Of a stretch of DNA of 64,000 nucleotides, positions 1 through 36,580 are shown piece by piece. A program made the position numbers and the translations under genes. Source of the stretch: an uncultured Acidobacteriota bacterium (GTDB taxonomy: Bacteria; Acidobacteriota; JAQAZP01); assembly GCA_963836075.1 (NCBI GenBank), contig CAWIIB010000001.1, forward strand, positions 225,002 to 289,001. Reading direction: 5' to 3'. Below the pieces are notes generated by a model that did not search any database, was not told the origin of the DNA, and worked only from the letters and a program-made list of their open reading frames with translations. Within the stretch, counting starts at the first letter, position 1; the number at the start of each line of letters is the position of its first letter.

Positions 1-300
1 CGCTCGCTGCAGACCGTGCCGGTGATCCAGGCGCTGCTGGCCAAGATGGAGGGGATCCGCCGGGAGGAGATGGACAGCTTCGGCGGCACCCTCGATCCCG
101 CTCAGCGGGACCGGGTGGAACGGTTCAGCCGCCGGCTGGTCAGCCGGATGATCCACGAACCGCTGAGCCGGATCAAGGTCTGTGACCGCAGCACCCGCAT
201 CGGCATGCTCAAGCTGGACACGGTGCTCGACATCTTTGCCCTGGCCGAAGAGGACCGTCTGGACCTGGAGCGCGAAGACCGGCAGGAGGTGAGCCGATGA
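1..300 (+). CDS. hemA: glutamyl-tRNA reductase HemA, C-terminal fragment (gene starts upstream of window)
   Basis: The ORF is in frame from base 1. Its C-terminal segment (…IHEPLSRIKVCDRSTRIGMLKLDTV…) resembles the HemA dimerisation domain, and its stop overlaps the next gene's start (ATGA). Confidence 0.6.
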   Translation, partial: RSLQTVPVIQALLAKMEGIRREEMDSFGGTLDPAQRDRVERFSRRLVSRMIHEPLSRIKVCDRSTRIGMLKLDTVLDIFALAEEDRLDLEREDRQEVSR

Positions 301-1847: not shown

Positions 1848-1859
1848 GGAGTAGGAGCC

Positions 1860-2834
1860 ATGGCTTTTCCTGATATTCGTATGAGAAGGATGAGAAGAAC
1901 CGAACGGCTGCGCGGGTTGGCCTGCGAGACCGTTCTGCACCCGGCTGACTTCATCTACCCCCTTTTCGTCTGTCCCGGAAAAGGCGTGAAGAACGAGATC
2001 TCCTCCATGCCCGGGTGCTACCAGATGTCGGCGGACATGATCGCCAGGGAGTGCGAGGAGATCGACGAGCTGGGTATCTCCGGGGTGATTCTTTTTGGTA
2101 TCCCCAGCAAGAAGGACGCGGTGGGCTCGGAGGGCTACGCCGCCGATGGCGTGGTGCCCACGGCCATCCGGCAGATCCGCGACCGGGTTCCCGGCCTGCT
2201 GATCGTGGCCGATGTCTGCATGTGCGAGTACACCGACCACGGGCACTGCGGGATCATCAAGGACGGGGGAGTGGACAACGACTCCACCCTGGACCTGCTG
2301 GCCCGGGCTTCGCTCTGCTATGCCGAGGCCGGGGCCGACGTGGTGGCCCCTTCGGACATGATGGACGGCCGGGTGGCGCGTATCCGGAAGGTGCTGGACG
2401 AATCGGGGAAAGAGGAGACGGTGATCCTCTCCTACGCCGTGAAATACGCATCGGCTTTCTACGGCCCGTTCCGCGAGGCCGCCGAATCGGCGCCGCAGTT
2501 CGGCGACCGCCGGGCCTACCAGATGGACCCGCCAAACGTGCGGGAAGCCCTGCGCGAGGCGGCGCTGGATGTTGATGAGGGGGCGGACATGATTATGGTC
2601 AAGCCGGCGCTGCCCTATCTCGACGTGCTGCAGCGGGTGAAGCAGGAATCTCCGGTTCCGGTGGGCGCCTACAATGTCTCCGGAGAGTTCTCCATGATCC
2701 ATGCCGCGGCGGAGCGGGGCTGGCTCGACCTGAAGAAGACCTCCCAGGAGAGCCTGATTTCGATCAAGCGGGCCGGTGCTGACTTCATTCTGACCTATTT
2801 TGCCAAGGACGTGGCGCGGGACCTGCGATCCTAG
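1860..2834 (+). CDS. hemB: porphobilinogen synthase (delta-aminolevulinate dehydratase)
   Basis: 324 aa with conserved HemB motifs ([20 protein letters not shown], active-site Lys region [15 protein letters not shown]). Confidence 0.9.
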
Positions 2835-2863
2835 TGCACGCAGGGACAACAGGGGGTGGACCG

Positions 2864-4171
2864 ATGTCCGGATTGAACCTCGAAAAGAGCCGGCGGCTCT
2901 TCGAACAGAGCGGAAAACGGATCCCCGGCGGGGTCGAATTCTCCGGTTCGCGCTTTCCGTTCGGTGGGCGGTACGCCGCCATTCATCAGCCGGGGCAGCG
3001 GTGCCCGGATCTGGGACGTGGACGGCAACGAGTATGTGGACCATGTCTGTTCCTGGGGGCCGCTGCTCTTTGGTCACGCCCACCCGGCAATCCTCGAGGC
3101 GGTGAACCGCGCCGCCGCTCGGGGCACGACCTTCGGCGCCCCCACCGAGGCGCGAGTTCAGGCTGGCCGAGGCGATCCACCGCTTTGTTCCTTCGATGGA
3201 AATGGTGCGTCTGGTCAGTTCGGGCACCGAAGCCACCATGAGCGCGGTGCGGCTGGCCCGCGGGTTCACCGGCCGCGAGGCGGTGATCAAGTTCAACGGC
3301 TGTTACCACGGGCATTCGGACGGCTTTCTGGTGCAGGCCGGATCCGGGGCCACCACCCTGGGCAGTCCGGACAGCCCGGGGGTGATACCGGGAACGGTGG
3401 CTGCCACGCTCCAGGTTCCGTTCAACGACCTGGAGGCGGTGGAGGAGGTGGCGCACGAGCACAGCGACCGGCTGGCCGCGGTGATCGTGGAACCGGTGGC
3501 CGGGAATATGGGAGTGATCCCCCCGAGCCCCGGCTTTCTCGCCGGTTTGCGGAAGCTGTGCGACCGCCACGGTGCCCTGCTGATCTTTGACGAGGTGATC
3601 ACCGGGTTCCGCCTGGCCCGGGGCGGGGCCCAGGAACTGTTCGGCATCCGGCCCGACCTGACCACCCTGGGCAAGATCCTCGGCGGCGGCCTGCCCCTGG
3701 GAGCCTTTGGCGGCCGTGCGGAGGTGATGGATGCCCTGGCCCCCACCGGGCCGGTGTACCAGGCCGGGACCCTGTCCGGCAACCCGGTGGCCGTGGCTGC
3801 CGGTCTGGCCGCCCTGGGTTTGATCGAGGACGATCCGGACCTCTACCACCGCCTGGAGCGCACCACCGGCCGCGCTGGTGGAGGAACTGCAGCGGCTGGC
3901 CGCCGAAAAGGGTGTTCCCATCCGTTACCAGAGGGTGGGATCGATGTTTACCCATTTTTTCACCGGCGAGGAGCGGGTGGCCAATTACGAGGACGCCACC
4001 GCCTGCGACACCGGCGCCTTCCGGCGCTACTTCGGCGCCATGCTGGAACGGGGTGTCTACCTCGCCCCGTCGGCCTTCGAAGCCGCCTTTGTCTCGGCGG
4101 TCCACCTGGACAGCGACCTGGAGCAGACCGTCGAAGCTCACCGGGCCGTCCTGGACCTGCTGCCGGACTGA
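2864..4171 (+). pseudogene. hemL: glutamate-1-semialdehyde 2,1-aminomutase, disrupted by three +1 single-base insertions
   Basis: The HemL protein is readable across three frames: 2864→~2936, ~2937→~3162, ~3163→~3874, ~3875→4171. Each break is a single extra G (gtcGaattc, cagGctgg, cgcGctgg). Removing each G restores a full-length aminotransferase class-III protein (…[14 protein letters not shown]…, …[28 protein letters not shown]…, …[15 protein letters not shown]…). Confidence 0.8.
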
Positions 4172-4224
4172 ACCGCGACCGGCGCCGGCAGGCGCCCGCC
4201 GCACGCATTGGTGGAGGAACTGAC

Positions 4225-4710
4225 ATGGATCTCCAGGCCCGGGACCTGATGGTCAGCGAATTCGATACTGTCTCTCCGGACGCGCCGCTGGCCGATGCGG
4301 TGCGATTGATGCGCAACCCGGTGAAGGGCGGCGCCGTGCGGCGGGTGTTCGGACTGATGGTGGTGGACGAAAATGACGCGCTGGTGGGCATGATCTCCAT
4401 GTTTGACGTGCTGTTCCACTTCGACATGATGTTTCACCTGGAGGAGACTCCGGACGGGGGGCCGGCCGGGGAGGCTCAATTGGAAGAGGCATTCCACCGC
4501 GCCTGCGAAAAGGCCGGACCGATGAAGGTGGAGGACCTGATGACCAGGACCCTGGTCAAGGTTGACGAACAGGCCCACATCACTGATATCATCGACATCC
4601 TGATCAAGACCCGGCACCGCCGCCTGCCGGTCTGTCGGGGAAACACCATTTGCGGTGTGATTTACATCTCCGACGTCTTTTACGAAATCTACAAGAACCT
4701 GCTTGGCTGA
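4225..4710 (+). CDS. CBS-domain pair protein (paralog 1)
   Basis: 161 aa with two CBS motifs (ARDLMV…, [10 protein letters not shown]…). A GGAGG RBS lies 7 nt upstream. It is a paralog of the ORF at 30682..31179. Confidence 0.75.
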
Positions 4711-4967
4711 TCTGGCAGCCATTGGCAGGGTGGATCAATCCTTCTCGCCTTAAAAAACTACTGAAAAGATGGAGCTTACCGGCCCTGTCATGGGACGGTG
4801 CGGATTACCCGGTCCCTTTGCGCGTCTCTTGACAGCGGCGGAGGCGATGTGGCATAAACTGATGCATTCGATGTTGCGTTTTGTGTTGGATCGGATGAAT
4901 GGAATGTCGGCCGCCATCTTGAGGATTGAATGAACGTCTCCGTGGCAGGGGGAGGACGCAACAGACA

Positions 4968-5558
4968 ATGCTGACTGAACTCCTGCGCAGGAAGCGGTCA
5001 CGGATCCTTGCCGACTGGACCGAGATCATCTTCCGCAACTACCCCGAGCAGACCGCCACCTTTATGCGTGAACAGAAAGACCGGTTCAACAATCCGGTGG
5101 GCTATGCCGTTTCCCGCGAGGTGCCCCGGTTCCTCGACCTGCTCATCGAAGGCGCCGAACCCGGGGAGTCGGCCGCCGCCATCGACCGTTTTCTCCAGAT
5201 CAGGTCAGTGCAGGAATCCCGGGCTTCCCTGGCGCTTTCCTTCATTTTCGAGCTCAAGCAGGTGATCCGGGCGCAGACGGCCGGGGATCCCCGCTATCTC
5301 GAGGAGTTGGACAGACTGGACACCGCAATTGATCGCATCGGTCTTGCGGCCTGCGACATCTACCAGGGATACCGGGAAAAAATTCTGGAAATCAAGGCCA
5401 ACGAGATCCGCAACCGCTCGAAACTGCTGCTGGAGCGGATGAACATGTCTTACGGAGATGAACCGGGCGGAGCGGGTTGCTGCGCACCGGAGGATATTCC
5501 CGTCGAACCAGCGACCGACAAAGACGCTGGCGAACTCAAGGGAGGAAACGATAGATGA
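4968..5558 (+). CDS. RsbRD-N-like/DsrT-like conserved protein, translationally coupled to dsrM
   Basis: The ORF's stop overlaps the dsrM start (ATGA at 5555-5558). The start is uncertain, with a TTG at 4926 as the alternative. The N-terminus (MLTELLRRKRSRILADWTEI) resembles the RsbR N-terminal-like domain often found upstream of dsrMKJOP. Confidence 0.5.
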   Translation: MLTELLRRKRSRILADWTEIIFRNYPEQTATFMREQKDRFNNPVGYAVSREVPRFLDLLIEGAEPGESAAAIDRFLQIRSVQESRASLALSFIFELKQVIRAQTAGDPRYLEELDRLDTAIDRIGLAACDIYQGYREKILEIKANEIRNRSKLLLERMNMSYGDEPGGAGCCAPEDIPVEPATDKDAGELKGGNDR

Positions 5559-6556
5559 ACGTCTTGTACCCCCTTATCGCAATCATCCTGCTGGTCGTGA
5601 TTGCCACGGTGGGGGCGGGAACCGCCGGCCTGGACACGCTGTTCGGGGTCTATATCCCGTACCTGGCACTGGCGGTATTTCTGGTCGGGGTGACCTGGCG
5701 GGTCGTGCGCTGGGCCCGGGCGCCGGTGCCGTTCCGCATCACCACCACCTGCGGTCAGGCCAAGTCACTCCCCTGGCTGAAGAACAACCCGCTGGACTGC
5801 CCGGACAACGGCTGGGGCGTGGTGGGGCGGATGCTGCTGGAGGTGCTCTTCTTCCGCAGCCTCTTCCGCAACACCAAGGCCGAGCTGCGCCGTGAGCCGA
5901 AAACACGGCTGCTCTACGGGTCGGACAAGTTTCTCTGGGCCGGGTCGCTGGCCTTCCACTGGGCTTTCCTGATCATACTCCTGCGGCACTTCCGATTTTT
6001 TACCGAACCCACGCCCGCCTTTGTCGGCTGGCTGCAGATGTTTGACGGGTTCTTCCAGATTGGTGCGCCGGTGTTCCTGATGACCGACATGGTGATCCTG
6101 GCCGCGCTGTCCTATCTTTTCTTCCGCCGAATCCTCGACCCGAAGCTGCGCTACATCTCACTGCCCGCCGATTACTTCGCGCTCTTTCTCATCGCCGGGA
6201 TAGCCATCACCGGCGTGCTGATGCGCTACACCGTGGCCAAGGGCGACCTGCTGGCGGTGAAGCAGCTGGCTCTGGGTCTGTTCAGCTTCAGCCCGGTGGT
6301 CCCCCCGGGGATCAGCACCGTCTTCTTCGTCCACTTCTTCCTGGTCTGTGTACTGCTGGTCTACTTCCCGGCCAGCAAACTGATGCACATGGGCGGCGTT
6401 TTCCTCAGCCCCACCAGGAACCTGGCCAACAACAACCGGGCGAAACGGCATATCAACCCCTGGAACCCCGAGGTCAAGGTCCACACCTACGAGGAGTGGG
6501 AGGACGATTTCCGGGAGAAGATGAAGGGCTGCGGACTGCCTTTGGAGAGGGAGTGA
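5555..6556 (+). CDS. dsrM: DsrM, membrane di-heme cytochrome b subunit (NarI/HdrE-like) of the DsrMKJOP complex
   Basis: 333 aa polytopic membrane protein with NarI-like His ligands, followed immediately by dsrK. Confidence 0.9.
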   Translation: MNVLYPLIAIILLVVIATVGAGTAGLDTLFGVYIPYLALAVFLVGVTWRVVRWARAPVPFRITTTCGQAKSLPWLKNNPLDCPDNGWGVVGRMLLEVLFFRSLFRNTKAELRREPKTRLLYGSDKFLWAGSLAFHWAFLIILLRHFRFFTEPTPAFVGWLQMFDGFFQIGAPVFLMTDMVILAALSYLFFRRILDPKLRYISLPADYFALFLIAGIAITGVLMRYTVAKGDLLAVKQLALGLFSFSPVVPPGISTVFFVHFFLVCVLLVYFPASKLMHMGGVFLSPTRNLANNNRAKRHINPWNPEVKVHTYEEWEDDFREKMKGCGLPLERE

Positions 6557-6558
6557 CG

Positions 6559-8193
6559 ATGTCAGAACCTGAATACAAAATCGAAGACATAGCCCGTATC
6601 GACTACCGCCCGCCGAAGAAGGGCTGGATGGAGTCCGGCGCCGATTTCCGGGTAGGCACCTGGTGTTACAGCGCCAACGAGGAGAAGTGCCGCTATCTCG
6701 ACCTGCCCTTCCCGCACACCTGGTCGCCGTCCGACGAGGACTGGAAGCTGCCCCCGAACTGGAAGGAAATCATCCTCACCGCCCTGAGGGAGCGCAAGGA
6801 GAAATACCGTTCCTTCCAGCTGTTCATGGAGATCTGCGTCAGGTGCGGGGCCTGTGCCGACAAGTGCCACTACTTCATCGGCAGCGGCGACCCGAAGAAC
6901 ATGCCGGTGCTCCGCGGCGAGCTGCTGCGCTCGGTCTACCGCAAGGAGTTCACCACCTCGGGCAAACTGCTGGGCAAATTCGCCGGCGCCCGAGAGCTCA
7001 CCGAGGACGTAATCAAGGAGTGGTTCTACTACTTCTACCAGTGCACCGAGTGCCGGCGCTGTTCAGTCTTCTGCCCCTACGGCATCGACACCGCAGAGGT
7101 GACCATGCAGGGGCGGGAGCTGCTGGCCGAGATCGGGCTGGGGATAAACTGGATCAACGAGCCGGCGGCCAACTGCTTCCGCACCGGCAACCACCTGGGG
7201 ATCCAGCCCCACGCCTTTGTGGACAGCTTCGAGTTTGCGGTGGAAGACCTTGAGGACGTCACCGGGGTCAAGGTCGAGGCGCCGATCAACCGCAAGGGCG
7301 CCGAGATCCTGGTGGTGCCGCCCTCGGCCGACTACTTCGCTCACCCGCACTACTTCACCTTCCTCGGCTACCTGGCGCTGTTCCACGAGATCGGCCTGGA
7401 CTACACCTGGAGCGCTTACACCTCCGAGGGCGGGAACTTCGGCCTCTTCCACTCGCGGGAGATGATCAAGCGGCTCAATGCCAAGGTCTACGCCGAAGCC
7501 AAACGGCTGGGGGTCAAGTGGATTCTGGGCTGCGAGTGCGGCCACATGTGGCGGGTGATGCACCAGTACATGAACACGATGAACGGCCCGGCCGACTTCC
7601 TCGAGCAGCCGGTGTCGCCGATCACCGGGACCCGCTTCGGCAATGCCGCCTCGACCAAGATGGTGCACATCACCGAATTCACCGCGGACCTGATCCGCCA
7701 CAACAAGATCAAGCTGGACAAGAGCCGCAACGACCACATCCGGGCCACCTTCCACGACTCCTGCAACCCGGCCCGGGCCATGGGGCTGATCGATGAGCCG
7801 CGCTACGTGATCAACAACGTGTGCAACAACTTTTTCGAGATGCCGGACAACACCATCCGCGAGCAGACGTTCTGCTGCGGGTCGGGGGCCGGTCTGGGCA
7901 CCGACGAAAACATGGAGATGCGGCTGCGCGGCGGCATGCCGCGGGCCAACGCGGTGGAGTTCGTCAGGGACAAACACGGCGTGAACCACCTGCTCTGCAT
8001 CTGCGCCATCGACAAGGCCACCCTGCCGCCGCTGCTCGATTTCTGGGTGCCGGGGATCGAGGTGGCCGGAGTTCACGAGATGGTGGGCAACGCCCTGATC
8101 ATGGAGGGCTCCAATGACCGGAGCACCGACCTCCGCGGGGAGCCGTTGCCCCAGCTGGCCGCCACGGCGGAAGACAAGGGGGGTGACGACTAA
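6559..8193 (+). CDS. dsrK: DsrK, HdrD-like catalytic subunit (CCG domains, Fe-S) of DsrMKJOP
   Basis: ATG at 6559, 3 nt after the dsrM stop, with a GGAGAGGGAG RBS. The protein has CxxCxxC ferredoxin and CCG cysteine motifs (CNPARAMG…CCGSGAG). Confidence 0.9.
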   Translation: MSEPEYKIEDIARIDYRPPKKGWMESGADFRVGTWCYSANEEKCRYLDLPFPHTWSPSDEDWKLPPNWKEIILTALRERKEKYRSFQLFMEICVRCGACADKCHYFIGSGDPKNMPVLRGELLRSVYRKEFTTSGKLLGKFAGARELTEDVIKEWFYYFYQCTECRRCSVFCPYGIDTAEVTMQGRELLAEIGLGINWINEPAANCFRTGNHLGIQPHAFVDSFEFAVEDLEDVTGVKVEAPINRKGAEILVVPPSADYFAHPHYFTFLGYLALFHEIGLDYTWSAYTSEGGNFGLFHSREMIKRLNAKVYAEAKRLGVKWILGCECGHMWRVMHQYMNTMNGPADFLEQPVSPITGTRFGNAASTKMVHITEFTADLIRHNKIKLDKSRNDHIRATFHDSCNPARAMGLIDEPRYVINNVCNNFFEMPDNTIREQTFCCGSGAGLGTDENMEMRLRGGMPRANAVEFVRDKHGVNHLLCICAIDKATLPPLLDFWVPGIEVAGVHEMVGNALIMEGSNDRSTDLRGEPLPQLAATAEDKGGDD

Positions 8194-8576
8194 TGTACGA
8201 CGCTGGGAAAATCATCACCGGTCTGGTTGTCTTTCTGCTGCTGGTCACCTCGCCTGTCTGGTACAACCTGGCCAGCGGCCACTCGGCCGACGTGCCCGAG
8301 CTGGCCAAACCGGCCAACGCCGAGAACTGCGTGGCCGAAACCAGCTACATGCGGGCGGCGCACATGAACCTGCTCAATGATTGGCGCGAACAGGTGGTGC
8401 GCAACGAGAAGCGGGTCTTCGTCAGCGAGGACGGCACCGAGCACGAGATGAGCCTGACCAACACCTGCCTCGACTGCCACAAGGACAAATCGGCGTTCTG
8501 CGACCGCTGTCACGACTACACCATGGTCGATCCCTACTGCTGGGGCTGCCATATCGTGCCGGGAGGGGACAACTGA
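8193..8576 (+). CDS. dsrJ: DsrJ, periplasmic tri-heme cytochrome c
   Basis: Three CxxCH motifs (CLDCH, CDRCH, CWGCH) and an N-terminal signal/anchor. Its start overlaps the dsrK stop (TAATG). Confidence 0.9.
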   Translation: MYDAGKIITGLVVFLLLVTSPVWYNLASGHSADVPELAKPANAENCVAETSYMRAAHMNLLNDWREQVVRNEKRVFVSEDGTEHEMSLTNTCLDCHKDKSAFCDRCHDYTMVDPYCWGCHIVPGGDN

Positions 8577-9346
8577 TGGCTGTAGACCGAAGAGACTTTA
8601 TTAAAATGGCCGGGATCGGTGCCGCCCTGGGGCTGGCAGCGAAGACTCAGGCCGGTACGCTGACCAGGGAGGTCGGCAGTTACCGGGCCGGCGCGAAGGA
8701 GCGTACCGCGAAACGCTGGGCCATGGTGGTCGACCTGCGAAAAATCAGCGAGGAGACCATCGACCGCTGTGCCCGGGCCTGCCACGCGGCGCACAACGTT
8801 CCCGATTTCGGCAATCCCAAGGACGAGGTCAAGTGGATCTGGGGCGAGCCGTATCACAATGCCTTCCCGGCCCAGGAGAACCACCACACCAAGGAAGATC
8901 TGGCGCACATCATGGTCCCGGTGCTCTGCAACCACTGCGACAACCCGCCCTGTGTGCGGGTCTGCCCCACGCAGGCCACCTGGCGCCGCGAGGACGGGAT
9001 CGTGATGATGGACTGGCACCGCTGTATCGGCTGTCGCTACTGCATCACCGCCTGCCCCTACGGGTCGCGGAGCTTCAACTGGCGTGACCCCCGGCCGCAT
9101 ATCGAGAACATTGACCAGTCGTTTCCCACCCGTACCAGGGGTGTGGTGGAGAAGTGCACCTTCTGCAACGAGCGGCTGGCTCGCGGCGAGCAACCGGCAT
9201 GCGTCGAGGCCTGCGAACAGCGGGAGCTGGTGTTCGGCGACCTCGAGGACCCGCATTCCGAGGTGCGTGAGCTGCTGGCGGAGAACTTCACCATCAGGCG
9301 CAAGACGGGCCTTGGAACGCAACCCGAAATTTACTATATCGTGTAG
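8576..9346 (+). CDS. dsrO: DsrO, periplasmic ferredoxin-like Fe-S subunit (Tat signal)
   Basis: Starts at a TGATG overlap with dsrJ. The signal MAVDRRDFIKMAG is twin-arginine, and four Cys clusters of the HmcB/NrfC type are present. Confidence 0.85.
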   Translation: MAVDRRDFIKMAGIGAALGLAAKTQAGTLTREVGSYRAGAKERTAKRWAMVVDLRKISEETIDRCARACHAAHNVPDFGNPKDEVKWIWGEPYHNAFPAQENHHTKEDLAHIMVPVLCNHCDNPPCVRVCPTQATWRREDGIVMMDWHRCIGCRYCITACPYGSRSFNWRDPRPHIENIDQSFPTRTRGVVEKCTFCNERLARGEQPACVEACEQRELVFGDLEDPHSEVRELLAENFTIRRKTGLGTQPEIYYIV

Positions 9347-9355
9347 GGGCAGCAC

Positions 9356-10513
9356 ATGTTAGAAAATGCACTCTATGGTAGCCGGAAGTACTGGGGATGG
9401 ATCTTTGGCCTCCTCACGGTGATGGCGGTGGGGGCCGTCTGCTACATCTGGCAGTACAACGTGGGCCTGGGCATCACCGGGCTGAGCCGGGACGTCTCCT
9501 GGGGCTTTTACATCGCCCAGTTCACCTTCCTGGTGGGTGTCGCCGCCTCGGCGGTGATGGTGGTCCTGCCATACTATCTCCACAACTACAAGGCCTTTGC
9601 CAAGATCACCATCCTTGGCGAATTCCTCGCCATATCCGCGGTGAGCATGTGTGTCATGTTCATCTTCGTCGACATGGGTCAGCCGTTCCGGCTGATCAAC
9701 ATGTTCCTCCATCCCAGCCCGAAATCGATGATGCTCTGGGACACGGTGGCGCTCAACGGCTACCTGCTGCTCAACGTGCTCATTTCCTATGTCACCCTGC
9801 GGGCCGAGCGCAAATCGGTTGCCCCGCCCGGCTGGATCAAACCGGTGATCATCCTCTCCATTCCCTGGGCGGTGAGCATCCACACCGTCACCGCGTTCCT
9901 TTACAGCGGTCTGGGCGGGCGGCCCTTCTGGTTCACCGCCATCCTGGCCCCGCGCTTTCTGGCCTCGGCCTTTGCCTCCGGTCCTGCCCTGCTGATCATT
10001 GTCTGCCTGCTGCTCAAGCGGTTGACCCGTTTCGATGCCGGAAAGGAGCCGATCCAGAAACTGGCGATCATCGCCGCCTATGCCATGTCACTCAATGTTT
10101 TCTTCATCGCCCTGGAGTTCTTCACCGCATTCTACAGCGGCAACCCCGAGCACACCGTTCACCTGCGCTATCTCTACTTCGGGGTGGGCGGCGGCTCCAA
10201 CCTGGTGCTTTTCATGTGGGTCTCCACGGCGCTGGCCCTGGTGGCACTGGTGCTGCTGCTGGTGCCCGAGTTGCGGAAGAACGAAAAGATCCTCACCTGG
10301 GCCTGCATCGGCGTGTTCATCTCCATCTGGATCGACAAGGGGATGGGGATGGTGGTGGGCGGCTTCGTGCCCAACCCGTTGGGCAAGGTCATCGAATATA
10401 CCCCCACGCTGCCCGAGCTGCTGATCTCGGCTTCGATTTACGCCACCGGGATGCTGATCATCACCGTGCTGTACAAGATTGCGCTCTCGGTGCGCGGGCA
10501 ACTGAAATACTGA
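9356..10513 (+). CDS. dsrP: DsrP, NrfD/PsrC-like integral membrane quinone-interacting subunit
   Basis: 385 aa with about 10 predicted transmembrane segments. It is the last gene of the dsrMKJOP order. Confidence 0.9.
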   Translation: MLENALYGSRKYWGWIFGLLTVMAVGAVCYIWQYNVGLGITGLSRDVSWGFYIAQFTFLVGVAASAVMVVLPYYLHNYKAFAKITILGEFLAISAVSMCVMFIFVDMGQPFRLINMFLHPSPKSMMLWDTVALNGYLLLNVLISYVTLRAERKSVAPPGWIKPVIILSIPWAVSIHTVTAFLYSGLGGRPFWFTAILAPRFLASAFASGPALLIIVCLLLKRLTRFDAGKEPIQKLAIIAAYAMSLNVFFIALEFFTAFYSGNPEHTVHLRYLYFGVGGGSNLVLFMWVSTALALVALVLLLVPELRKNEKILTWACIGVFISIWIDKGMGMVVGGFVPNPLGKVIEYTPTLPELLISASIYATGMLIITVLYKIALSVRGQLKY

Positions 10514-10525
10514 CCGCTGGGGGAG

Positions 10526-10556
10526 GGGAGGGGCCGGTCCGGCCGCCCCCCTTTCG
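10526..10556 (+). terminator. GC-rich hairpin plus CCCTTTC after dsrP; candidate intrinsic terminator
   Basis: GGGGCCGG-T-CCGGCC(G)CCCC stem followed by ctttcg. Confidence 0.45.
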
Positions 10557-10659
10557 CAGTTCGGGTTTCCCCCTATTCACGCAGGGAATCCCTAGATATG
10601 TTATCTATTATGTGCGAACAGTAAACACTGGAACGGCAGTACTGGAGGACAGGGAAAAC

Positions 10660-11609
10660 ATGGGTATTGTTCTGATCGTCACCTGCCTGTCGCTGGTTGT
10701 CTTCGTCGCCAGCGTGCTGACCCGGTTCATCCGGCTCTCCCGGTTGCCGGTTCACCTGCGCTGGGAAGTCTACCCCGTGCCGCACGAGAAGGGGAAAGGC
10801 AAATACGGCGGTTCATATCTCGAGGAGTACGAGTGGTGGACCAAGCCGCGGCAGACGTCGAAGCTGGCCGAATTGAAGGTGATGATCCCGGAGATCATCC
10901 TGCTGGCCGGTGTCTGGGAACACAACAGGAAGCACTGGTTCCGCACCTTCCCCTTCCACTTCGGCCTCTACCTCCTGGCCGGGCTGATCGCCCTCCTCGC
11001 CGTTGGCGGCGTGGCCACGGCGGCCGGCGTCCAGGTGACGGCGGACGGGGGCCTGTTCGGTGCGCTGGTCTACTACCTGACCATGGTGCTGGGCTATGCC
11101 GGCATGGGCCTGGCCCTCTATCGGGGCGTTGGCCCTGCTGCTGCGGCGGACCTTCAACGCCGACTACCGCGAATACACCACCGGCGCCGACTTCTTCAAC
11201 CTCGCTCTTCTTCATTGCCGCCCTGGTGGTGGCCCTGGTCACCCACTTCACGGTGGACCGGCACTTCGCCAACCTGCGGGGCTTTTTCCAGGGGCTGCTG
11301 ACCTTCGACGGTTCGGCGATCCCGCAGCTGTCAGCGCTGCAAAGCCTGGAGATCGTACTGGCCTCGCTGCTGGTGGCCTATATCCCGCTGACCCACATGT
11401 CGCACTTCTTCACCAAGTGGTTCACGTACCACGACGTGCGCTGGAGCGACGAACCGAACCTCGAGGGCAGCGGGTTCGACGAGAAGATTGCCAAGCAACT
11501 TGAAGTCCACGGTGAGTTGGTCCGCCCCGCACATCCGCGGCGACGGCAAGAAGAAAAACTGGATCGACGTGGTCACGTCTTCGGGGCGGGAGGAATAGCA
11601 AGTGCATGA
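10660..11609 (+). pseudogene. second NarI/DsrM-like membrane cytochrome b (HmeC/HdrE-type, 'DsrM2'), disrupted by two +1 insertions
   Basis: Start MGIVLIVTCLSLVV with a GGAGG RBS. Frame breaks lie at ~11123-11127 (an extra G in cggggcg) and ~11212-11217 (an extra base in cttctt). The reconstructed protein keeps TM helices and a C-terminal THMSHFFTKWFTYH heme-ligand motif like the DsrM and QmoC C-termini. Its stop overlaps the next start (ATGA). Confidence 0.65.
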
Positions 11610-13224
11610 CAAAAAAACGCGTAAAATTCAGAGATATTTCGAAACCAACGGCCAGGCTGTCCGAGGAGCTGCGCAAGGAGGACTTCATGCCGCTCCCCGC
11701 GCCGCTGGACGATGCCGGAGGCTCTGCCGGACTTCCCGCCGTTGAAAGAGACAGTGGAAGAAAAGTACGAGTGCTCACTGGACGACACGGTGGCCCTCAA
11801 TCTGCCAAAGCCCGAGACCAAGGAAGAGGAGGACGAGCTGGTCGCCAAGTTCCTCTCCGGGCTGCAGAAGCTCTTCACCAAGGAGAACAACTGGACCTTT
11901 CTCCAGCCGCTGCTGCTCTCCATGGACCACTGCGCCTCCTGCCACACCTGCTCCGACTCCTGCCACATCTACGAGGGCAGCGGCAAGAACCCGATCTACC
12001 GGCCGGCCTACCGCTCGGAGGTTTTCCGCCGGCTCTACAAGAACCATGTCAAGGGTAACGGCGGCGGGATTCTGGCCGCCTGGCGCAACGGCGAGATCGA
12101 GCTCAACTGGACCACCGTGGCCCGGCTGGCCGAGCTCTCCTACCGCTGCAACCTCTGCCGGCGCTGCGCCCAGACCTGTCCCATCGGCGTGGACAACGGC
12201 CTGATCGGCCACGAGATCCGCAAGCTGTTCAGCCAGGAGATGGGCATCGCGGCCAAGGAAATCCACGAGACCGGCTCGGTGCTGCAGCTCAAGGTGGGCT
12301 CCTCCACCGGGATGAACGACCTGGTGGTCAAGGACAACATGGAGTTCATCGACGAGGACGTCACCGAGAAGACCGGGATCACCGTGGAGACGCCCTGGGA
12401 CAAGGAAGGGGCCGACATCCTGCTGATCCACAACGCCGGCGAGATCATGGCCTGGCCGCTGAACCCCGGGGCCTTCGGCGTGATCTTCGAGTCGGCCGGG
12501 CTGAGCTGGACCATGTCCAGCGAGATCGCCGGTTACGACAGCATCAACTACGGCCTCTGGTACGACGATGCCCAGTTCGCCCGGGTGGCGATCAAGCACG
12601 CCGAGGCGGCGAAGAAGCTGGGCGTGAAGAAGATCGTCCTCGGCGAGTGCGGGCACGCCCACAAGGCACTGACCGTGATCGCCGACCGGGTGCTCACCGG
12701 CGACCTGAACATCCCCCGGGAAAGCTGCCTGGTGACCCTGGAGGAGATCGTCATGTCCGGCCGGCTGAAGGTCGACCCGGAGCGCAACGACTTCCCGGTG
12801 ACCCTGCACGACCCCTGCAACCTGGTGCGACTGATGGGCATCGTCGAGCCGCAGCGCCGCATCCTGCGCAAGATCGCCCCGCGGTTCCGCGAGATGACGC
12901 CCCACGGCGTCGACAACTACTGCTGCGGCGGCGGCAGCGGGTTCGCCATCATGAGCGGCAACAACTTCGCCGACTGGCGGATCCAGGTCTCCGGGCCGCA
13001 AGAAGCTCGAGCAGGTGCTCAACGCCTTCGAGGGCGAGCTGGACCCGTCGATCAAGAAGTATGTCTGCGCCCCCTGCTCCAACTGCAAGGGCCAGCTGCG
13101 GGACATCTTCGCCTACTACGATCTGTGGGAGAAGCACTCCATCATGTATGACGGGCTGGTGGAACTGATCGTCAACTGCATGGTGGACGCCAACCCGGGC
13201 TTCATCGAGTGGGAGCAGCACTGA
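11606..13224 (+). pseudogene. second HdrD/DsrK-like CCG-domain Fe-S protein ('DsrK2'/HmeD-like), disrupted by two +1 insertions
   Basis: The N-terminus MTKKRVKFRDISKP… runs in frame 2 up to ~11716, where an extra G sits in ccggagg. The long middle ORF 11712..13151 has CxxCxxCxxxC plus CCG motifs (CNLVRLMG, CCGGGSGF). An extra C at ~12998 shifts to the C-terminal ORF ending at 13224 (…CAPCSNCKGQ…). Confidence 0.65.
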
Positions 13225-13435
13225 CCCGGACTCCGTGCCGTGACGCCGGAAGCGGACGCCCCGCGGCCCCCGATTCAGGGGGCCGGAGGTTTCCTCTCCG
13301 GCGTCACGCTGTACAGCGGAGAAGCCGCCATTCGGACAACGATACGTTGCGACAGCTGGGCCGGGTGGGGCGATTGGCTCTAAGTGCATATGGTTCAGAT
13401 GAATAGGGCTTCGCTGTCGGATTCCTTCCGATCCA

Positions 13436-13455
13436 ATGCAACAATATATGCAACA
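13436..13455 (+). promoter_or_regulatory. tandem direct repeat ATGCAACA-atat-ATGCAACA immediately upstream of the aprB promoter; candidate activator site
   Basis: An exact 8-bp direct repeat with a 4-bp spacer, ending 15 bp upstream of the -35 box. Confidence 0.4.
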
Positions 13456-13470
13456 TTTTCCCGAAACCCC

Positions 13471-13499
13471 TTGACAACCAAAATCGCTCTTGGTAGAGT
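13471..13499 (+). promoter_or_regulatory. sigma70-type promoter for aprBA (TTGACA-17-TAGAGT)
   Basis: Consensus -35 at 13471-13476, a 17-bp spacer, and -10 TAGAGT at 13494-13499. This implies a ~265-nt 5' leader. Confidence 0.5.
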
Positions 13500-13766
13500 T
13501 GGCGCTGATTTGTGTCGTGAATGATACTCGTACCAGTTCCCTCGGCTGACCGCCAGGGGAACCGGAGGATTTTCAGAGAGCTTCATTTCATATACAAGGT
13601 GTCAATCAATCGGGACGAGATTTCAGGAAAACTATGGGGCTTTTTCCCAAGGAATTCCACATTCAGGCTGAAAAGATAGCCCTGGGGAAGGGGGTGGCGC
13701 CAAAGTAGAAAAGGGTGTTTTCAGTCCATCGAATCGTTAGACTTGCAATTAAAGGAGACGCTGATA

Positions 13767-14198
13767 ATGCCAAGTTATGTCATTCCCGATAAGTGCGATG
13801 GCTGCAAGGCTCTGGACAAGACGGCCTGCCAGTATATCTGCCCCAACGACCTGATGAAGCTGGACAAGGCCACTGAGAAGGCCTACAACCAGGATCCGGA
13901 CATGTGCTGGGAGTGCCAGTGCTGTGTCAAGATCTGCCCCACCCAGGCCATCGACGTGCGCGGCTATGCCGACTTCATGCCCCTGGGCGCCAGCGTTGTG
14001 CCCATGCGGAGCACCGACTCCATCATGTGGACGATCAAGTTCCGTGACGGAAGTCTGAAGCGGTTCAAGTTCCCCATCCGCACCACCGAGGAAGGCAAAG
14101 CCGTTCCCGATGGCGGATTCGAGACGCACAGCGATCTCAACAGCCCCGAACTCTACACCGAGCCGGCCTCCGCCGGCGGGCCCATTGCCAAGCTGTAG
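13767..14198 (+). CDS. aprB: adenylylsulfate (APS) reductase beta subunit
   Basis: MPSYVIPDKCDGCK… with two [4Fe-4S] ferredoxin motifs. An AAGGAG RBS lies 10 nt upstream of the ATG at 13767, and aprA follows directly. Confidence 0.9.
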   Translation: MPSYVIPDKCDGCKALDKTACQYICPNDLMKLDKATEKAYNQDPDMCWECQCCVKICPTQAIDVRGYADFMPLGASVVPMRSTDSIMWTIKFRDGSLKRFKFPIRTTEEGKAVPDGGFETHSDLNSPELYTEPASAGGPIAKL

Positions 14199-14218
14199 CA
14201 GCAGGAGGTTACAGACCA

Positions 14219-16120
14219 ATGAATAACTGGGAAACTGTTGTTGTCGAAACCGACCTGCTCATCGCCGGCGGCGGAATGTCCGCCTGCGGAGCGGCCACCG
14301 AGGCCGCGTACTGGGCCAAGGCCAACGGCCTGAAGATCACCCTGGTGGACAAGGCCGCCATGGACCGTTCCGGCGCCGTGGCCATGGGTCTCTCCGCCAT
14401 CAACCAGTATGTGGGCATCGCCGCCGGTGACAACACCGCCAATGACTACATCAAGTATGTCCGCCAGGACCTGATGGGCGTCTGCCGCGAGGATCTGGTC
14501 TACGACATCGCCCGCCACGTCGACTCCTCGGTGCACCTCTTCGAGAAATGGGGCCTGCCCATCTGGAAGGACGACGAGGGCAACTACGTGCACGAAGGCC
14601 GCTGGCAGCTGATGATCAACGGTGAGTCGTACAAGATCATCGTGGCCGAGGCGGCCAAGAACGCCATGGCCGAGCTGGGCGACAGCGGCGAGATCTACGA
14701 ACGCGTCTTCATCACCGGCCCCCTGCTTCAGGACGGCAAATGTGTCGGCGCCGTGGGTTTCTCCACCCGTGAAGAGAAGTTCTACGTTTTTAAAGCCAAA
14801 ACCACCATCTGTGCCATGGGCGGTGCGGTGCACGTGTTCAAGCCCCGGTCCACCGGTGAAGGTTTCGGCCGTTCCTGGTATCCCCCGTTCAACACCGGTT
14901 CCAGCGCCTACTTCACCCTGGCCGCCGGCGCCGAAATGACCTGCCAGGAAGTCCGCTTCATCCCCATCCGCTTCAAGGATGCCTACGGTCCGGTGGGTGC
15001 GTGGTTCCTGCTCTTCAAGTCCCGGGCCACCAACGCCTTCGACGGCGAGTACATGGTGGAGCGGCGCCCCGAGCTGGAAAAGTGGCTCCCCTACGGCAAG
15101 GTCAAGCCCATCCCCGCCAACCTGCGGAACTGGCTCGGCATGCTGGACATCTTCGAAGGCAAGGGTCCGATCTACATGAGGACCGAAGAGGCGATGCAGC
15201 GGATCGCCGACGAGTACAAGGACGATCCCAAGGCCTTCAAGAAGAAGTCCAAGGAACTGGAGAGCGAAGCCTGGGAAGACTTCCTCGACATGACCATCTC
15301 CCAGGCCATGCTCTGGGCGGCCACCAACGTCAACCCTGAAGAGAAACCCTCCGAGATCGCTGCCTGCGAGCCGTATTTCATCGGTTCCCACTCCGGCGCC
15401 TCCGGTGCCTGGATCTCCGGTTCCGAGGATCTGCAGACCGCCGAGACCAAGGGTGAATATTTCTGGGGCGGCTACGGCCTGACCACCACTCCCGGCCTCT
15501 TCGCCATTGGCGACGCGTCCGGCGCTTCGAGCCACAAATTCTCCTCCGGCTCCCACGCCGAGGGTCGTATCGCCGGCAAGGCCGCGATCAAGTACATCCT
15601 CGAGAACAACACGGCTCCGGTGGTGGACGACGCCACCATCCAGCAGCTCCGTGAGACGGTGTTCAAGCCGATGGTGACCTTCGAAGAGCACAAGGGCGCC
15701 ACCACCGATCCCAACGTCAACCCCAACTACATTCGGCCCCGGCAGTTCATGTATCGTCTGCAGAAGATCATGGACGAGTACGCCGGCGGCGTTTCCGCGG
15801 CTTTCTCCACCAACAACAAAATGCTCGACCGGGCGATGGAGCTGCTGACCTTCCTCAAGGAAGACTCCGAGAAGCTCGCCGCCGAGGACAACTACGAGCT
15901 GGAACGTTGCTGGGAAAACCTGCACCGCGCCATGCAGGCCGAGTCTCACGTGCGGACCCTGATGTTCCGTGAAGAGACCCGCTGGCCCGGATACTATTTC
16001 CGCGCCGACATGCCGACCATGGACGAGGAAAACTGGAAGCTGTTCGTCAACTGCAAGATGGATCCGGCGTCCGGTGAGTGGGAGATGATCAAGCGGCCCA
16101 TCTACTCGATCATCGACTAG
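14219..16120 (+). CDS. aprA: adenylylsulfate (APS) reductase alpha subunit (FAD flavoprotein)
   Basis: 633 aa with an N-terminal FAD fold (DLLIAGGGMSACGAA) and an AGGAGG RBS. The length and motifs match AprA. Confidence 0.9.
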   Translation: MNNWETVVVETDLLIAGGGMSACGAATEAAYWAKANGLKITLVDKAAMDRSGAVAMGLSAINQYVGIAAGDNTANDYIKYVRQDLMGVCREDLVYDIARHVDSSVHLFEKWGLPIWKDDEGNYVHEGRWQLMINGESYKIIVAEAAKNAMAELGDSGEIYERVFITGPLLQDGKCVGAVGFSTREEKFYVFKAKTTICAMGGAVHVFKPRSTGEGFGRSWYPPFNTGSSAYFTLAAGAEMTCQEVRFIPIRFKDAYGPVGAWFLLFKSRATNAFDGEYMVERRPELEKWLPYGKVKPIPANLRNWLGMLDIFEGKGPIYMRTEEAMQRIADEYKDDPKAFKKKSKELESEAWEDFLDMTISQAMLWAATNVNPEEKPSEIAACEPYFIGSHSGASGAWISGSEDLQTAETKGEYFWGGYGLTTTPGLFAIGDASGASSHKFSSGSHAEGRIAGKAAIKYILENNTAPVVDDATIQQLRETVFKPMVTFEEHKGATTDPNVNPNYIRPRQFMYRLQKIMDEYAGGVSAAFSTNNKMLDRAMELLTFLKEDSEKLAAEDNYELERCWENLHRAMQAESHVRTLMFREETRWPGYYFRADMPTMDEENWKLFVNCKMDPASGEWEMIKRPIYSIID

Positions 16121-16142
16121 CCACACGGCCATTGCTTTTCAG

Positions 16143-16181
16143 CCCCCCGGGCGCGCCCTGCGTGCCCGGGGGGTTCTCTTT
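16143..16181 (+). terminator. intrinsic terminator after aprA (CCCCCCGGGC-N11-GCCCGGGGGG + TTCTCTTT)
   Basis: A perfect 10-bp GC stem followed by a T-rich tract. A second 7-bp inverted repeat (ACACGGCtcgGCCGTGT) lies at 16183-16199. Confidence 0.75.
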
Positions 16182-16333
16182 AACACGGCTCGGCCGTGTC
16201 CGCGGCGGTTGCGGGTGGACATCGGTGCTTCTGGCCCCGGCCAGGAGCATCGATGTTTGTTCACAACTGACCCGGACGGTGCCCAACCAGGTTCCCTGAT
16301 CCGTACCGGCGTCAGTCTGATTTCGGGTGAAGA

Positions 16334-16627
16334 ATGACAGAACAGACACCCCAGACCTGCCCCCACTGCCAATCGGCCCTGTTGCCGTTTCGCACGCCGC
16401 CCAACACTTCGTGGGGCGGCAACATCCACCTGGCCTGCTTCAACGACGAATGTCCCTACTTCGTCCGCGGCTGGAAGTGGATGGCCGAAAAATACGAAGC
16501 CCACGCCTCGTACCGTTTCATGGTCGACCCGGTGAACGGGACCACCGGACCCCTGCCGGTCTGGTCGGCCCAGGCGCTGCGCGACTTGATTCTGCAAGAG
16601 GGCGAAGAGTGGGATTCCGAGGAGTGA
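16334..16627 (+). CDS. small zinc-ribbon-like hypothetical protein (CPHC…CFNDECPYF)
   Basis: 97-aa ORF with four Cys in a CxxC…CxxxC arrangement. It lies 4 nt upstream of the next ORF, in the same operon as qmoABC. Confidence 0.55.
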   Translation: MTEQTPQTCPHCQSALLPFRTPPNTSWGGNIHLACFNDECPYFVRGWKWMAEKYEAHASYRFMVDPVNGTTGPLPVWSAQALRDLILQEGEEWDSEE

Positions 16628-16631
16628 CTGG

Positions 16632-17454
16632 ATGAACGAGGCCAGCGATTTCAAGAAAAAGATCATGTCGGATGCGCCCCGCCTGAACTACGGCGACCGT
16701 TTCCGCTTTTCCTGCAACCCCGGCGTGCCCTGCTTCAATGCCTGCTGCGCCGACATCAACATCGTCTTGACCCCCTACGACATCCTGCGGCTGAAAAACC
16801 GCCTGGGCATCAGCTCCAGCGAATTCCTCGACAGATACGCCGTGGTGCCCTTCAACAAGGAAGTCAAGCAGCCGGTGCCGCTGCTCAAGATGTCGGACCA
16901 CGAGGACAAGCGCTGCCAGTTCGTTGGCCAACAGGGCTGCACGGTTTACGAGGACCGGCCCTGGGCCTGCCGGATGTACCCCCTGGGGCTGGCCGCACCG
17001 CGTGACGAAGCCGAGCAGGGCAAGCGGTTCTACTTCCTGCTGGAAGAGTCACACTGCAAGGGCTTCGAGGAAGACAACGAATTCTCGGTGGCCGGCTGGA
17101 TCGAAGACCAGGGGATCCGCGAGTACCGATGAGGCGGGGGAACTGTTCAAGGACATTTCGCTGCACCCCTATTTTGAAAAAGGCGACCTCTCGCCGGCCA
17201 AGATGGACATGTTCTTCAACGCCTCCTATGACCTGGACCGCTTCCGCCGGTTTGTCTTCGGATCGAGTTTTCTCGAAAAGTTCGACGTGGAGCAGGAGAC
17301 GGTGGACAAGATCAGGACCGATGACGTGGCGATGATGAAATTCAGCTTCAACTTCCTGCGCTACGCGCTGTTTTACGAACCGACGATGAAGTTGAAACCG
17401 GAGTTCGAAGAGATGAAGAAACGGGAGAAGGAGTTCTTCGAGGAGAAGGACTGA
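16632..17454 (+). CDS. YkgJ/UPF0153-family putative Fe-S/zinc-chelating protein with a C-terminal charged extension (one +1 frameshift)
   Basis: Has the CxxxxCxxCC…C family signature (SCNPGVPCFNACCADINIVLTPYD…CQFVGQQGCTVYEDRPWACRMYP). The reading frame shifts at ~17126 (an extra C in tacc), after which the protein continues as …DEAGELFKDISLHPYFEKGD… to 17454. Confidence 0.6.
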
Positions 17455-17498
17455 TCCCCGAAAGGTAAGAGGCAACCCCTAACGGGAGGAACTGCGAG

Positions 17499-18767: not shown

Positions 18768-18769
18768 CC

Positions 18770-36173: not shown

Positions 36174-36580
36174 CTGGGATCTGGACCGCAAAACGCTGTT
36201 GCTGGGATTCTGGGACAGCCAGCTGTAATAAGGGAATTCATTTACCTCGAAAAGATAGCACAGTTGACGGACGCCTTCAAGAAGTCAGTTCTACGGAAGT
36301 CCTGTTTTTCCAAAGGGATTGGATTGCTCAATGGGGGGGGGAAGGCCGGCGGCGGGGGATCGCCCGCGGAATCCTTGAGCTTCCGGTCAACTCAAAATAC
36401 ATTACGTCCGATAAGATATATTATGTAAACTAATACGCGCGGCAGTGTACAGTCGTAGAGCCAGACAGCTTACTGCAAGCCCCTATATTTTAGATGGTTG
36501 TCCTTCTTTTGGTGCCCCCAAAAGCGGTTTCGTGGTAGTGACCCGATGCGGTCAGGACCATTGATGAGTTGGGGTGTCGA

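Follow-up and report, generated by a model that had tools for sequence, protein, structure and literature searches.

The 64,000-nucleotide stretch analyzed here (the window) carries four interrupted genes, hemL, a DsrM2-like gene, a DsrK2-like gene, and a YkgJ-like gene, and the question is whether the interruptions belong to the DNA of this uncultured sulfate reducer or to its assembly. Three-frame translations showed that the breaks in the four genes are true +1 shifts; the eight breaks listed in the initial annotation, and a ninth that it suspected near the end of the DsrM2-like gene (11506), were all real. The positions of the insertions were refined by aligning the window to two relatives, L002 and L001, and to contigs of a second assembly (Logan). 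In these alignments, the window contained 11 uncompensated one-base insertions and no uncompensated deletions, in agreement with the earlier statement that deletions are lacking. Nine insertions were in coding sequence (three in hemL, three in the DsrM2-like gene, two in the DsrK2-like gene, and one in the YkgJ-like gene), and two were intergenic, at 4801 (C) and about 11600 (A), so that the insertions are not confined to the four genes as had been proposed (Table 1). Among the positions first given, 2936, 17126, 11718, and 12998 were at or near the refined sites (2936, 17126/17127, about 11716 to 11718, and about 12991 to 12997), whereas 3162, 3874, 11125, and 11215 were replaced by 3152/3153, 3867/3868, 11121, and 11204. 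The view that the extra base is mainly G also had to be given up: relative to Logan, the extra bases were G (3868), C (4801), T (11121), G (11204), T (11506), and A (11600). At the sites beyond the Logan comparison, the extra base was G at 2936 by alignment to L002, and C or ambiguous between G and C at the others.

TABLE 1 Interrupted genes and extra bases in the window
Feature	Position	Strand	Remarks
hemL (glutamate-1-semialdehyde 2,1-aminomutase)	2864..4171	+	Three 1-nt insertions; repaired, 434 aa
hemL insertions	2936 (G), 3152/3153 (G or C), 3867/3868 (G)	+	From alignments of relatives; 3868 also versus Logan
Extra C, spacer between CBS-domain gene (4225-4710) and RsbRD_N gene (4968-5558)	4801..4801	+	Window GGTG[C]GG versus L082 GGTGGG
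DsrM2-like (NarI/HmeC-type membrane cytochrome b, PF02665)	10660..11598	+	Insertions 11121 (T), 11204 (G), 11506 (T); repaired, 311 aa
Extra base, spacer between DsrM2-like stop and DsrK2-like ATG 11606	11600..11603	+	Exact position alignment-dependent; absent in L084, L002, and L001
DsrK2-like (HmeD-type Fe-S/CCG protein)	11606..13224	+	Insertions ~11716-11718 (C or G), ~12991-12997 (G or C); repaired, 538 aa
YkgJ-like (PF03692 CxxCxxCC zinc/iron-chelating protein)	16632..17454	+	Extra C at 17126/17127; repaired, 273 aa

The insertions were tightly clustered (median gap, P = 5e-5; span, P = 1e-5), and their common direction (11 of 11) departed from a 50:50 expectation (P = 5e-4). The remainder of the window was unbroken, as the initial annotation had reported for its coding sequence: the region from 17.5 to 64 kb was tiled by long ORFs, and the proteins scanned at 17.5 to 58.9 kb gave full-length Pfam matches wherever a family was found, with two ORFs having no match. 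The window yielded no match to an Rfam family and no tRNA. A candidate twelfth insertion, a G5/G4 difference from L002 at 4948, was rejected; the Logan contig L082 agrees with the window there, and it is a real between-species difference. This difference sits upstream of ATG 4968.

When one base was deleted at each of the nine coding sites, four complete ORFs of 434, 311, 538, and 273 aa without any stop codon were obtained, and a conserved full-length gene was restored in all four cases. The restored lengths agreed with those of the homologues. For the DsrK2-like gene, almost all homologues (best 120 of 4,389 at E <= 1e-100) were 520 to 540 aa long and matched 94 to 100% of the repaired protein, and the YkgJ-like homologues P0276 and P0281 had 273 aa each. 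The true start of the DsrK2-like gene was ATG 11606, not 11712, and the public source record lists the broken 479-aa ORF at 11712-13151, without any difference, as protein P0124. In L001 and L002 (86 to 89% nucleotide identity), the orthologues were single-frame, and so were more than 100 homologues. Against L002, the nearest relative, the four repaired genes showed dN/dS values of 0.07 to 0.18 (0.11 for hemL, whose orthologue there is in a single frame with 89.6% amino acid identity), and twelve intact neighbors showed values of 0.05 to 0.31. The repaired genes are intact and under purifying selection. Stops, deletions, and raised dN/dS were looked for as marks of pseudogenes in the four repaired genes, and none was found. 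Bacterial frameshift pseudogenes are similar in that conserved genes are interrupted in a deposited sequence, but here selection is unrelaxed, deletions and stops are absent, lesions of the same type are repeated within a gene, and the shifts are missing from a second assembly of the same population. These results uphold the earlier reasoning that neither ordinary pseudogenization nor uniform sequencing error fits the pattern.

The second assembly comprised six Logan contigs (18.4 kb) from a k-mer assembly of run ERR11523668, which may differ from the source sample. Identity to the window was 98.1% in the DsrM2-like patch and 99.86 to 100% elsewhere, which indicates the same population. The contigs covered six of the sites (3868, 4801, 11121, 11204, 11506, and 11600), with 2936, 3152, about 11717, about 12993, and 17126 lying outside, and the extra base was missing from Logan (L082 and L084) at six of six. 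No other indel was present in the 18.4 kb, and about 16 kb outside the two patches was free of indels. Over 3868 and 4801, L082 is essentially the window haplotype (2 SNPs in 2.85 kb), yet it has neither extra base, and the last 197 aa of HemL are in a single frame there. Contig L084 has none of the three DsrM2-like insertions and codes for an intact 311-aa protein (P0153). The initial annotation had named the absence of the extra bases as the outcome that would mean consensus errors, and this outcome is now favored, since an independent k-mer assembly lacks all six testable bases. At the repair sites, Logan reads TTAAL in HemL and Tyr154 in the DsrM2-like protein, where first-pass repairs had given TTGRL and Ile. 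A de Bruijn graph is expected to branch at polymorphic positions. Two Logan contigs end just before insertion sites: L083, identical to the window over 16076-17123, stops 3 nt short of the 17126 site, and L084 stops at 11711, 6 nt short of the first DsrK2-like site (about 11717). The source contig has 2,297,832 bp (NCBI and ENA), and Logan splits the same population into contigs of 1 to 7 kb.

An exact look-up of the repaired proteins gave no match, but its HemL and DsrM2-like queries were wrong at the repair sites, and for these two proteins the lack of a match carries no information. A chimeric short-segment protein search over 2936/3152, 11717, and 17126 found no match above 92% identity; its top match, P0273, was rejected as an unrelated tandem-duplicated HemL. 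The JGI proteins in the protein searches showed at most 92% identity, and the same population is therefore absent from the JGI metagenome set. No papers mentioning run ERR11523668 were found.

The Logan contigs also revealed where the population varies. There were 22 SNPs between L084 and the window over 10663-11681 (2.2%), compared with about 0.04% elsewhere; the other five contigs had 5 SNPs in 7,052 nt, 1 in 5,047, 2 in 2,852, 0 in 1,048, and 0 in 1,047. The L084 alleles included 11 synonymous and 10 nonsynonymous differences. Judged by its sequence, L084 is a real second haplotype, because its alleles are often the same as those of L001 and L002. The nonsynonymous differences were evenly divided between the L084 and window haplotypes, with no excess on the window lineage. 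Four of the six Logan-tested insertions fall in this DsrM2-like patch of about 1 kb, where L084 represents a different haplotype and not strictly the assembled strain. The extra bases thus co-locate with the SNP-dense patch. This bears on the earlier argument that uniform error would not have left dsrMKJOP, aprA, qmoB, and dnaE intact. Uniform error is indeed unsuitable, but the argument does not reach nonuniform error: the insertions coincide with polymorphism in the population (22 SNPs over the 1-kb DsrM2-like patch versus 0 to 5 SNPs per contig elsewhere).

The base context of the insertions was also unusual. Most sites were not homopolymer extensions, and four of the six Logan-verified insertions were unlike both flanking bases; duplication of a neighboring base occurred at two verified sites (3868 and 11600) and at 17126. 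For seven of the nine coding insertions, a reading as tandem synonymous alleles of a single codon position is possible, compared with an expected fraction of 0.32 to 0.35 for random insertions (P of about 0.006 to 0.012), a post hoc test of moderate significance. The sites at 11506 and 17126 do not match this form. L001 and L002 carry the two alternative bases at 12993, 11506, and 11204. A methylation or restriction motif was considered as a cause and rejected: three of the sites have GGATCC 13 to 19 nt upstream, yet after multiple testing no k-mer was enriched.

Taken together, these results suggest that the 11 extra bases are probably consensus artifacts at strain-polymorphic sites of a collapsed, and itself probably long-read, metagenome assembly; most likely, they are not features of the organism's DNA. 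In this explanation, a long-read metagenome assembly would have collapsed closely related, co-occurring strains into one sequence, with the platform deduced indirectly. The strains would differ in patches from hemL to the CBS spacer, in the DsrM2-like/DsrK2-like pair, and at one YkgJ-like site. There, the consensus or polishing step may have treated some single-nucleotide differences as an insertion and not a substitution, and both alleles would then be written in tandem, with a net gain of one base. Such a process would explain why only insertions are seen, why the sites are mostly nonhomopolymer, and why both coding and intergenic DNA are affected. It would likewise account for the clustering at dense SNPs and the untouched conserved neighbors. 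According to one report, Flye merges strains of 98.65% identity into consensus contigs (PMC8302730). The present case is similar in that two haplotypes about 2% apart over the DsrM2-like gene occur in the same run, yet the record holds one sequence. In contrast, the literature describes a chimeric or mosaic consensus and lower identity, and the tandem writing of alleles is our own proposal; we found general background on long-read indels and strain collapse but no publication describing such an SNP-to-insertion artifact.

A second reading, less probable but still to be taken seriously, also treats the extra bases as consensus errors but as unrelated to polymorphism, that is, as residual random long-read insertions in undercovered or unpolished stretches. 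Indels causing frameshifts are typical residual errors of long-read assemblies (PMC9262707; PMC8302730), and as with known Nanopore or PacBio errors, single-base consensus indels here split otherwise intact genes of a megabase contig (2.3 Mb) and are missing from accurate-read data of the same organism. In addition, 3868, 11600, and 17126 are plain duplications of the adjacent base. However, textbook long-read errors concern homopolymer length, occur in both directions with deletions at least as frequent as insertions, and depend on coverage, whereas the 11 events here are all insertions, mostly nonhomopolymer, and in SNP-dense patches. Insertion-only changes at nonhomopolymer sites point away from ordinary homopolymer error and toward an atypical cause, namely, polymorphic sites. 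Random error also leaves unexplained why the four DsrM2-like sites share the single 1-kb stretch that holds 22 SNPs, and it gives no account of the Logan contigs that end 3 to 6 nt from two sites or of the excess of synonymous-pair contexts. A second copy or repeat that blocked polishing was rejected as well, since the window holds no repeat or paralogue of the broken genes.

It is improbable that the insertions are genuine, with multiple +1 insertions having recently inactivated hemL, the YkgJ-like gene, and the DsrM2-like/DsrK2-like pair in one strain and Logan representing an intact sister strain. Such a sister strain certainly exists, since L084 carries another haplotype across the DsrM2-like gene (22 SNPs), and none of the contigs recovered combined the exact window haplotype with an intact gene. 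However, all 11 events are insertions, two of them intergenic, with no accompanying deletion, nonsense codon, or rise in dN/dS, and three independent lesions in a 1.3-kb gene without other damage are unlike normal gene decay. Most extra bases are not slippage-type duplications, the nonsynonymous differences are evenly split between the haplotypes, and the near-identical haplotype of L082 lacks the extra bases at 3868 and 4801. Moreover, by established pathway knowledge, siroheme and heme synthesis through the C5 pathway of a sulfate reducer depends on HemL. Real insertions in one strain from an insertion-only, nonslippage mutational process in short tracts, such as recombination-associated mutagenesis or error-prone repair synthesis across patches of imported DNA, are more doubtful still. 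If this were true, the process would have struck the YkgJ-like gene, the DsrM2-like/DsrK2-like pair, and hemL very recently, leaving an essential tetrapyrrole gene multiply broken in a living sulfate reducer. Finally, restoration of the frame by transcriptional slippage or programmed +1 ribosomal frameshifting of the prfB type, in which the full protein likewise needs a +1 shift, is scarcely credible even though all shifts have the same direction and the genes are otherwise pristine. No shared shift-site motif was found near the sites, homopolymer slippery runs are absent, and two events are intergenic. In L001, L002, and over 100 homologues, the genes are single-frame and retain no shift site, the same population in Logan lacks the shifts, and this lack of conservation in effect refutes the reading. 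With three to four shifts in one gene, expression would moreover be prohibitively inefficient.

The preferred explanation, collapse of strains at polymorphic sites, carries a caution on data quality: frameshifts in a megabase metagenome contig can concentrate in a few genes and need not be spread evenly, the probable reason being that patches in which strains vary mislead the consensus step. If this cause holds, several +1 frameshifts in an otherwise perfect gene are a sign of artifact rather than decay. Should reads bear out the tandem-allele signature, it could serve for the automatic flagging and repair of such errors. For the organism, hemL is most likely intact, and because the extra bases point to consensus errors, the concern over a loss of HemL function is probably moot. 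Thus, the hemL, DsrM2-like/DsrK2-like, and YkgJ-like genes should be regarded as intact in this uncultured sulfate reducer, and neither heme or siroheme auxotrophy nor the loss of a second DsrMK-type module should be inferred from the record.

Three-frame translations gave the frame orders 2, 0, 1, 2 for hemL; 1, 2, 0, 1 for the second DsrM-like (DsrM2-like) gene; 2, 0, 1 for the second DsrK-like (DsrK2-like) gene; and 0, 1 for the YkgJ-like gene. Each frame step was therefore +1, as the initial annotation had claimed. A reference-genome scan yielded two relatives, L002 (an uncultured MAG; 86% nucleotide identity across positions 1-18,789) and L001 (an Acidobacteriota MAG; 89% across 9,221-16,025). 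In blastn alignments, the window carried a single uncompensated extra base at every frame break and an additional one in the spacer that separates the DsrM2-like stop codon from the ATG of the DsrK2-like gene. Uncompensated deletions were absent from the window, in agreement with the earlier claim, and the suspected ninth break, at 11506 in the DsrM2-like gene, proved real. The breaks had been thought to be confined to four genes; however, an extra C at 4801 and an extra A at 11600 are intergenic. Because ATG 11606 is the start of the DsrK2-like gene, the break near 11717 is internal to it. Deletion of one base per site gave complete ORFs of 434, 311, 538, and 273 amino acids with zero stop codons. 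All 11 events were insertions (p=5e-4 even at a 50:50 expectation), were clustered with a median gap of 509 nt (p=5e-5), and were all contained in a 14.2-kb span of the 64-kb window (p=1e-5). The rest of the window was unbroken, as had been stated: long ORFs tile the sequence, and the scanned proteins at 17.5-58.9 kb match Pfam end to end, which covers the proteins with a family match (two ORFs had none).

Downstream of the third hemL frameshift, translation in the wrong frame meets no stop and continues into the CBS-domain gene, giving a spurious 504-aa fusion ORF (3196-4710) that joins the middle of HemL, through an out-of-frame linker, to the CBS protein; the CBS gene proper (4225-4710) was called separately on the independently assembled contig L082. 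The 479-aa database protein P0124, in the DsrK2-like protein cluster, is exactly the broken ORF at 11712-13151, out-of-frame tail included. Its database entry gives NCBI and ENA as sources and places it on a 2,297,832-bp contig, to which other window proteins also map.

Genes, independently assembled contigs, and extra bases in the window (coding-site alternatives in brackets)
Feature	Position	Strand	Detail
cobA/hemD	297-1847	+	
hemB	1860-2834	+	
hemL	2864-4171	+	
CBS-domain gene	4225-4710	+	
RsbRD_N gene	4968-5558	+	
dsrMKJOP	5555-10513	+	
Second DsrM-like gene	10660-11598	+	
Second DsrK-like gene	11606-13224	+	
aprB	13767-14198	+	
aprA	14219-16120	+	
Small zinc-finger ORF	16334-16627	+	
YkgJ-like gene	16632-17454	+	
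Contig L081	47,199-54,250		5 mismatches, 0 gaps
Contig L082	3,577-6,430		2 mismatches; extra window G at 3868, C at 4801
Contig L083	16,076-17,123		0 mismatches, identical; stops 3 nt before YkgJ-like insertion
Contig L084	10,316-11,711		22 mismatches; extra window T at 11121, G at 11204, T at 11506, A at 11600
Contig L085	38,594-43,640		1 mismatch, 0 gaps
Contig L086	7,906-8,952		0 mismatches, identical
Extra base	2936		GT[C/G]
Extra base	3152		GC[G/C]
Extra base	3868		AC[C/G]
Extra base	11121		TA[T/C]
Extra base	11204		CT[C/G]
Extra base	11717		GC[C/G]
Extra base	12993		GG[G/C]

Genes were annotated from Pfam matches and our own reading of the translations. On its + strand, the window (62% G+C) holds a compact island of sulfate-respiration genes, which continues downstream of the YkgJ-like gene with qmoABC, a sigma-54 activator, dsrC, dsrAB, dsrN, and sat. 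Nearly the entire dissimilatory sulfate-reduction gene set lies in one co-oriented 32-kb cluster (297-32488), which includes dsrMKJOP, a second DsrMK-type pair, aprBA, and the YkgJ-like gene as well as cobA/hemD-hemB-hemL for tetrapyrrole synthesis. The nearest relatives were one Acidobacteriota MAG and one unclassified MAG; the next-best matches of dsrP (62-71% amino acid identity) were in MAGs labelled Zixibacteria, Calditrichaeota, Ignavibacteriales, Elusimicrobiota, and Desulfobacterota. On the - strand, an 807-aa ORF with two LptF/LptG permease domains (33768-36191) is apparently a fused LptFG. In the adjoining stretch at 36-38 kb, the G+C content falls to 53%, about 0.8 kb (36284-37058) has no convincing ORF, and Rfam and tRNA searches gave no match.

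Four of the six verified extra bases differed from both neighbours (G[C]G, A[T]C, C[G]C, and G[T]C), a context that resembles neither replication slippage nor homopolymer miscalling. At seven of the nine coding sites (all except 11506 and 17126), the extra base and its neighbour were two synonymous alternatives for one codon position. The expectation for random insertions in these genes, from exhaustive enumeration, was 0.32-0.35 (p about 0.006-0.012, in a post hoc test devised with the data already seen). At 12993, 11506, and 11204, the two alternative bases are those found in the two relatives. These patterns suggest that between-strain single-nucleotide differences were resolved by inserting the other allele and not by substitution. 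No sequence motif was enriched around the insertion sites, and the window contained neither a repeat nor another copy of the broken genes. GGATCC (a BamHI site) occurs at 2919, 12979, and 17113, each time followed by an insertion site 13-19 nt downstream; as a cause it was rejected as probable coincidence (p=0.004 uncorrected among about 400 6-mers, not significant when corrected).

Some window proteins are also recorded in Logan, a set of k-mer assemblies of public sequencing runs. Look-ups led to six contigs, every one from run ERR11523668, which may differ from the assembly's own sample. All six testable insertions were absent from these contigs (five of the 11 sites lie outside their cover), and no further indel was found in the 18.4 kb compared. 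At 3868, the site of the third hemL break, L082 lacks the extra G, reads T-T-A-A-L-V-E, and carries the final 197 HemL residues in a single frame. The extra C at 4801, new relative to the initial annotation, was found by the same comparison. An intact 311-aa DsrM2-like protein (P0153) is encoded on L084. Three of the five differences from L081 (49948, 49951, and 49954) are exactly 3 nt apart, with T in the window at each, just upstream of the ATG (49876) of an 867-aa LptD_N-containing gene; they may mark a short variable tract or a further oddity of the consensus.

Over the DsrM2-like gene, L084 represents the other haplotype. All 22 of its mismatches fell within 10,663-11,681 (density, 2.2%), and the 347 nt upstream of this patch were identical to the window; the other five contigs differed by about 0.04% on average. 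The variants comprised 11 synonymous and 10 nonsynonymous changes. Many L084 alleles were those of L001 or L002, and derived changes were divided between the two haplotypes; this is therefore real strain variation and not noise. By this comparison, the population has at least two haplotypes over the patch, and insertions fall inside it. Two contigs ended within 3-6 nt of further insertion sites (L084, 6 nt before the site near 11717); branching of the read graph at these points would be expected to produce such ends. Contigs of the run were 5-7 kb long over the housekeeping part (38-54 kb) and at most 2.9 kb over the island (compared for 1-24000), and look-ups in Logan of the complete hemB, dsrP, aprB, aprA, dsrM, and qmoA products found none, which suggests greater strain- or species-level heterogeneity in the island, or shared near-identical sequence.

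The record does contain the frame breaks, which are very probably a consensus artefact of some kind. General literature confirms that frameshifts arise from indels in long-read consensus sequences and that strains about 98-99% identical are collapsed by strain-oblivious assemblers (PMC9262707; PMC8302730). Our preferred explanation, which we consider reasonably likely, is that SNPs in collapsed strain-variable patches, probably of a long-read metagenome assembly, were rendered as +1 insertions. Single-nucleotide differences between strains would have been written there as an extra base rather than a substitution, which would account for the direction, base context, intergenic events, clustering, and contig breaks. 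No description of a tandem-allele artefact of this kind was found in the literature. The main rival, that the extra bases are long-read errors of the ordinary residual kind left where polishing was poor, is rather unlikely and leaves the coincidence with SNP density unexplained.

The orthologues in L002 and L001 were single-frame. The repaired genes showed dN/dS values of 0.07-0.18 against L002, and 12 intact neighbours showed values of 0.05-0.31. Nearly all best-scoring homologues of the DsrK2-like protein were 520-540 aa long, and the majority of those of the DsrM2-like protein were 295-320 aa. At 4948, in a Shine-Dalgarno-like stretch that precedes the RsbRD_N gene, the window has a G5 run where L002 has G4; this difference was rejected as a further error because the Logan contig agrees with the window, and it is a genuine between-species difference. 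Real strain-specific pseudogenes are improbable, as they would require eleven insertions without other damage and with selection unchanged; they are also contradicted by the absence of the extra bases at 3868 and 4801 from a near-identical haplotype. Programmed frameshifting is extremely improbable and fails on conservation. On this comparative evidence, hemL and the DsrM2-like, DsrK2-like, and YkgJ-like genes are not decaying.
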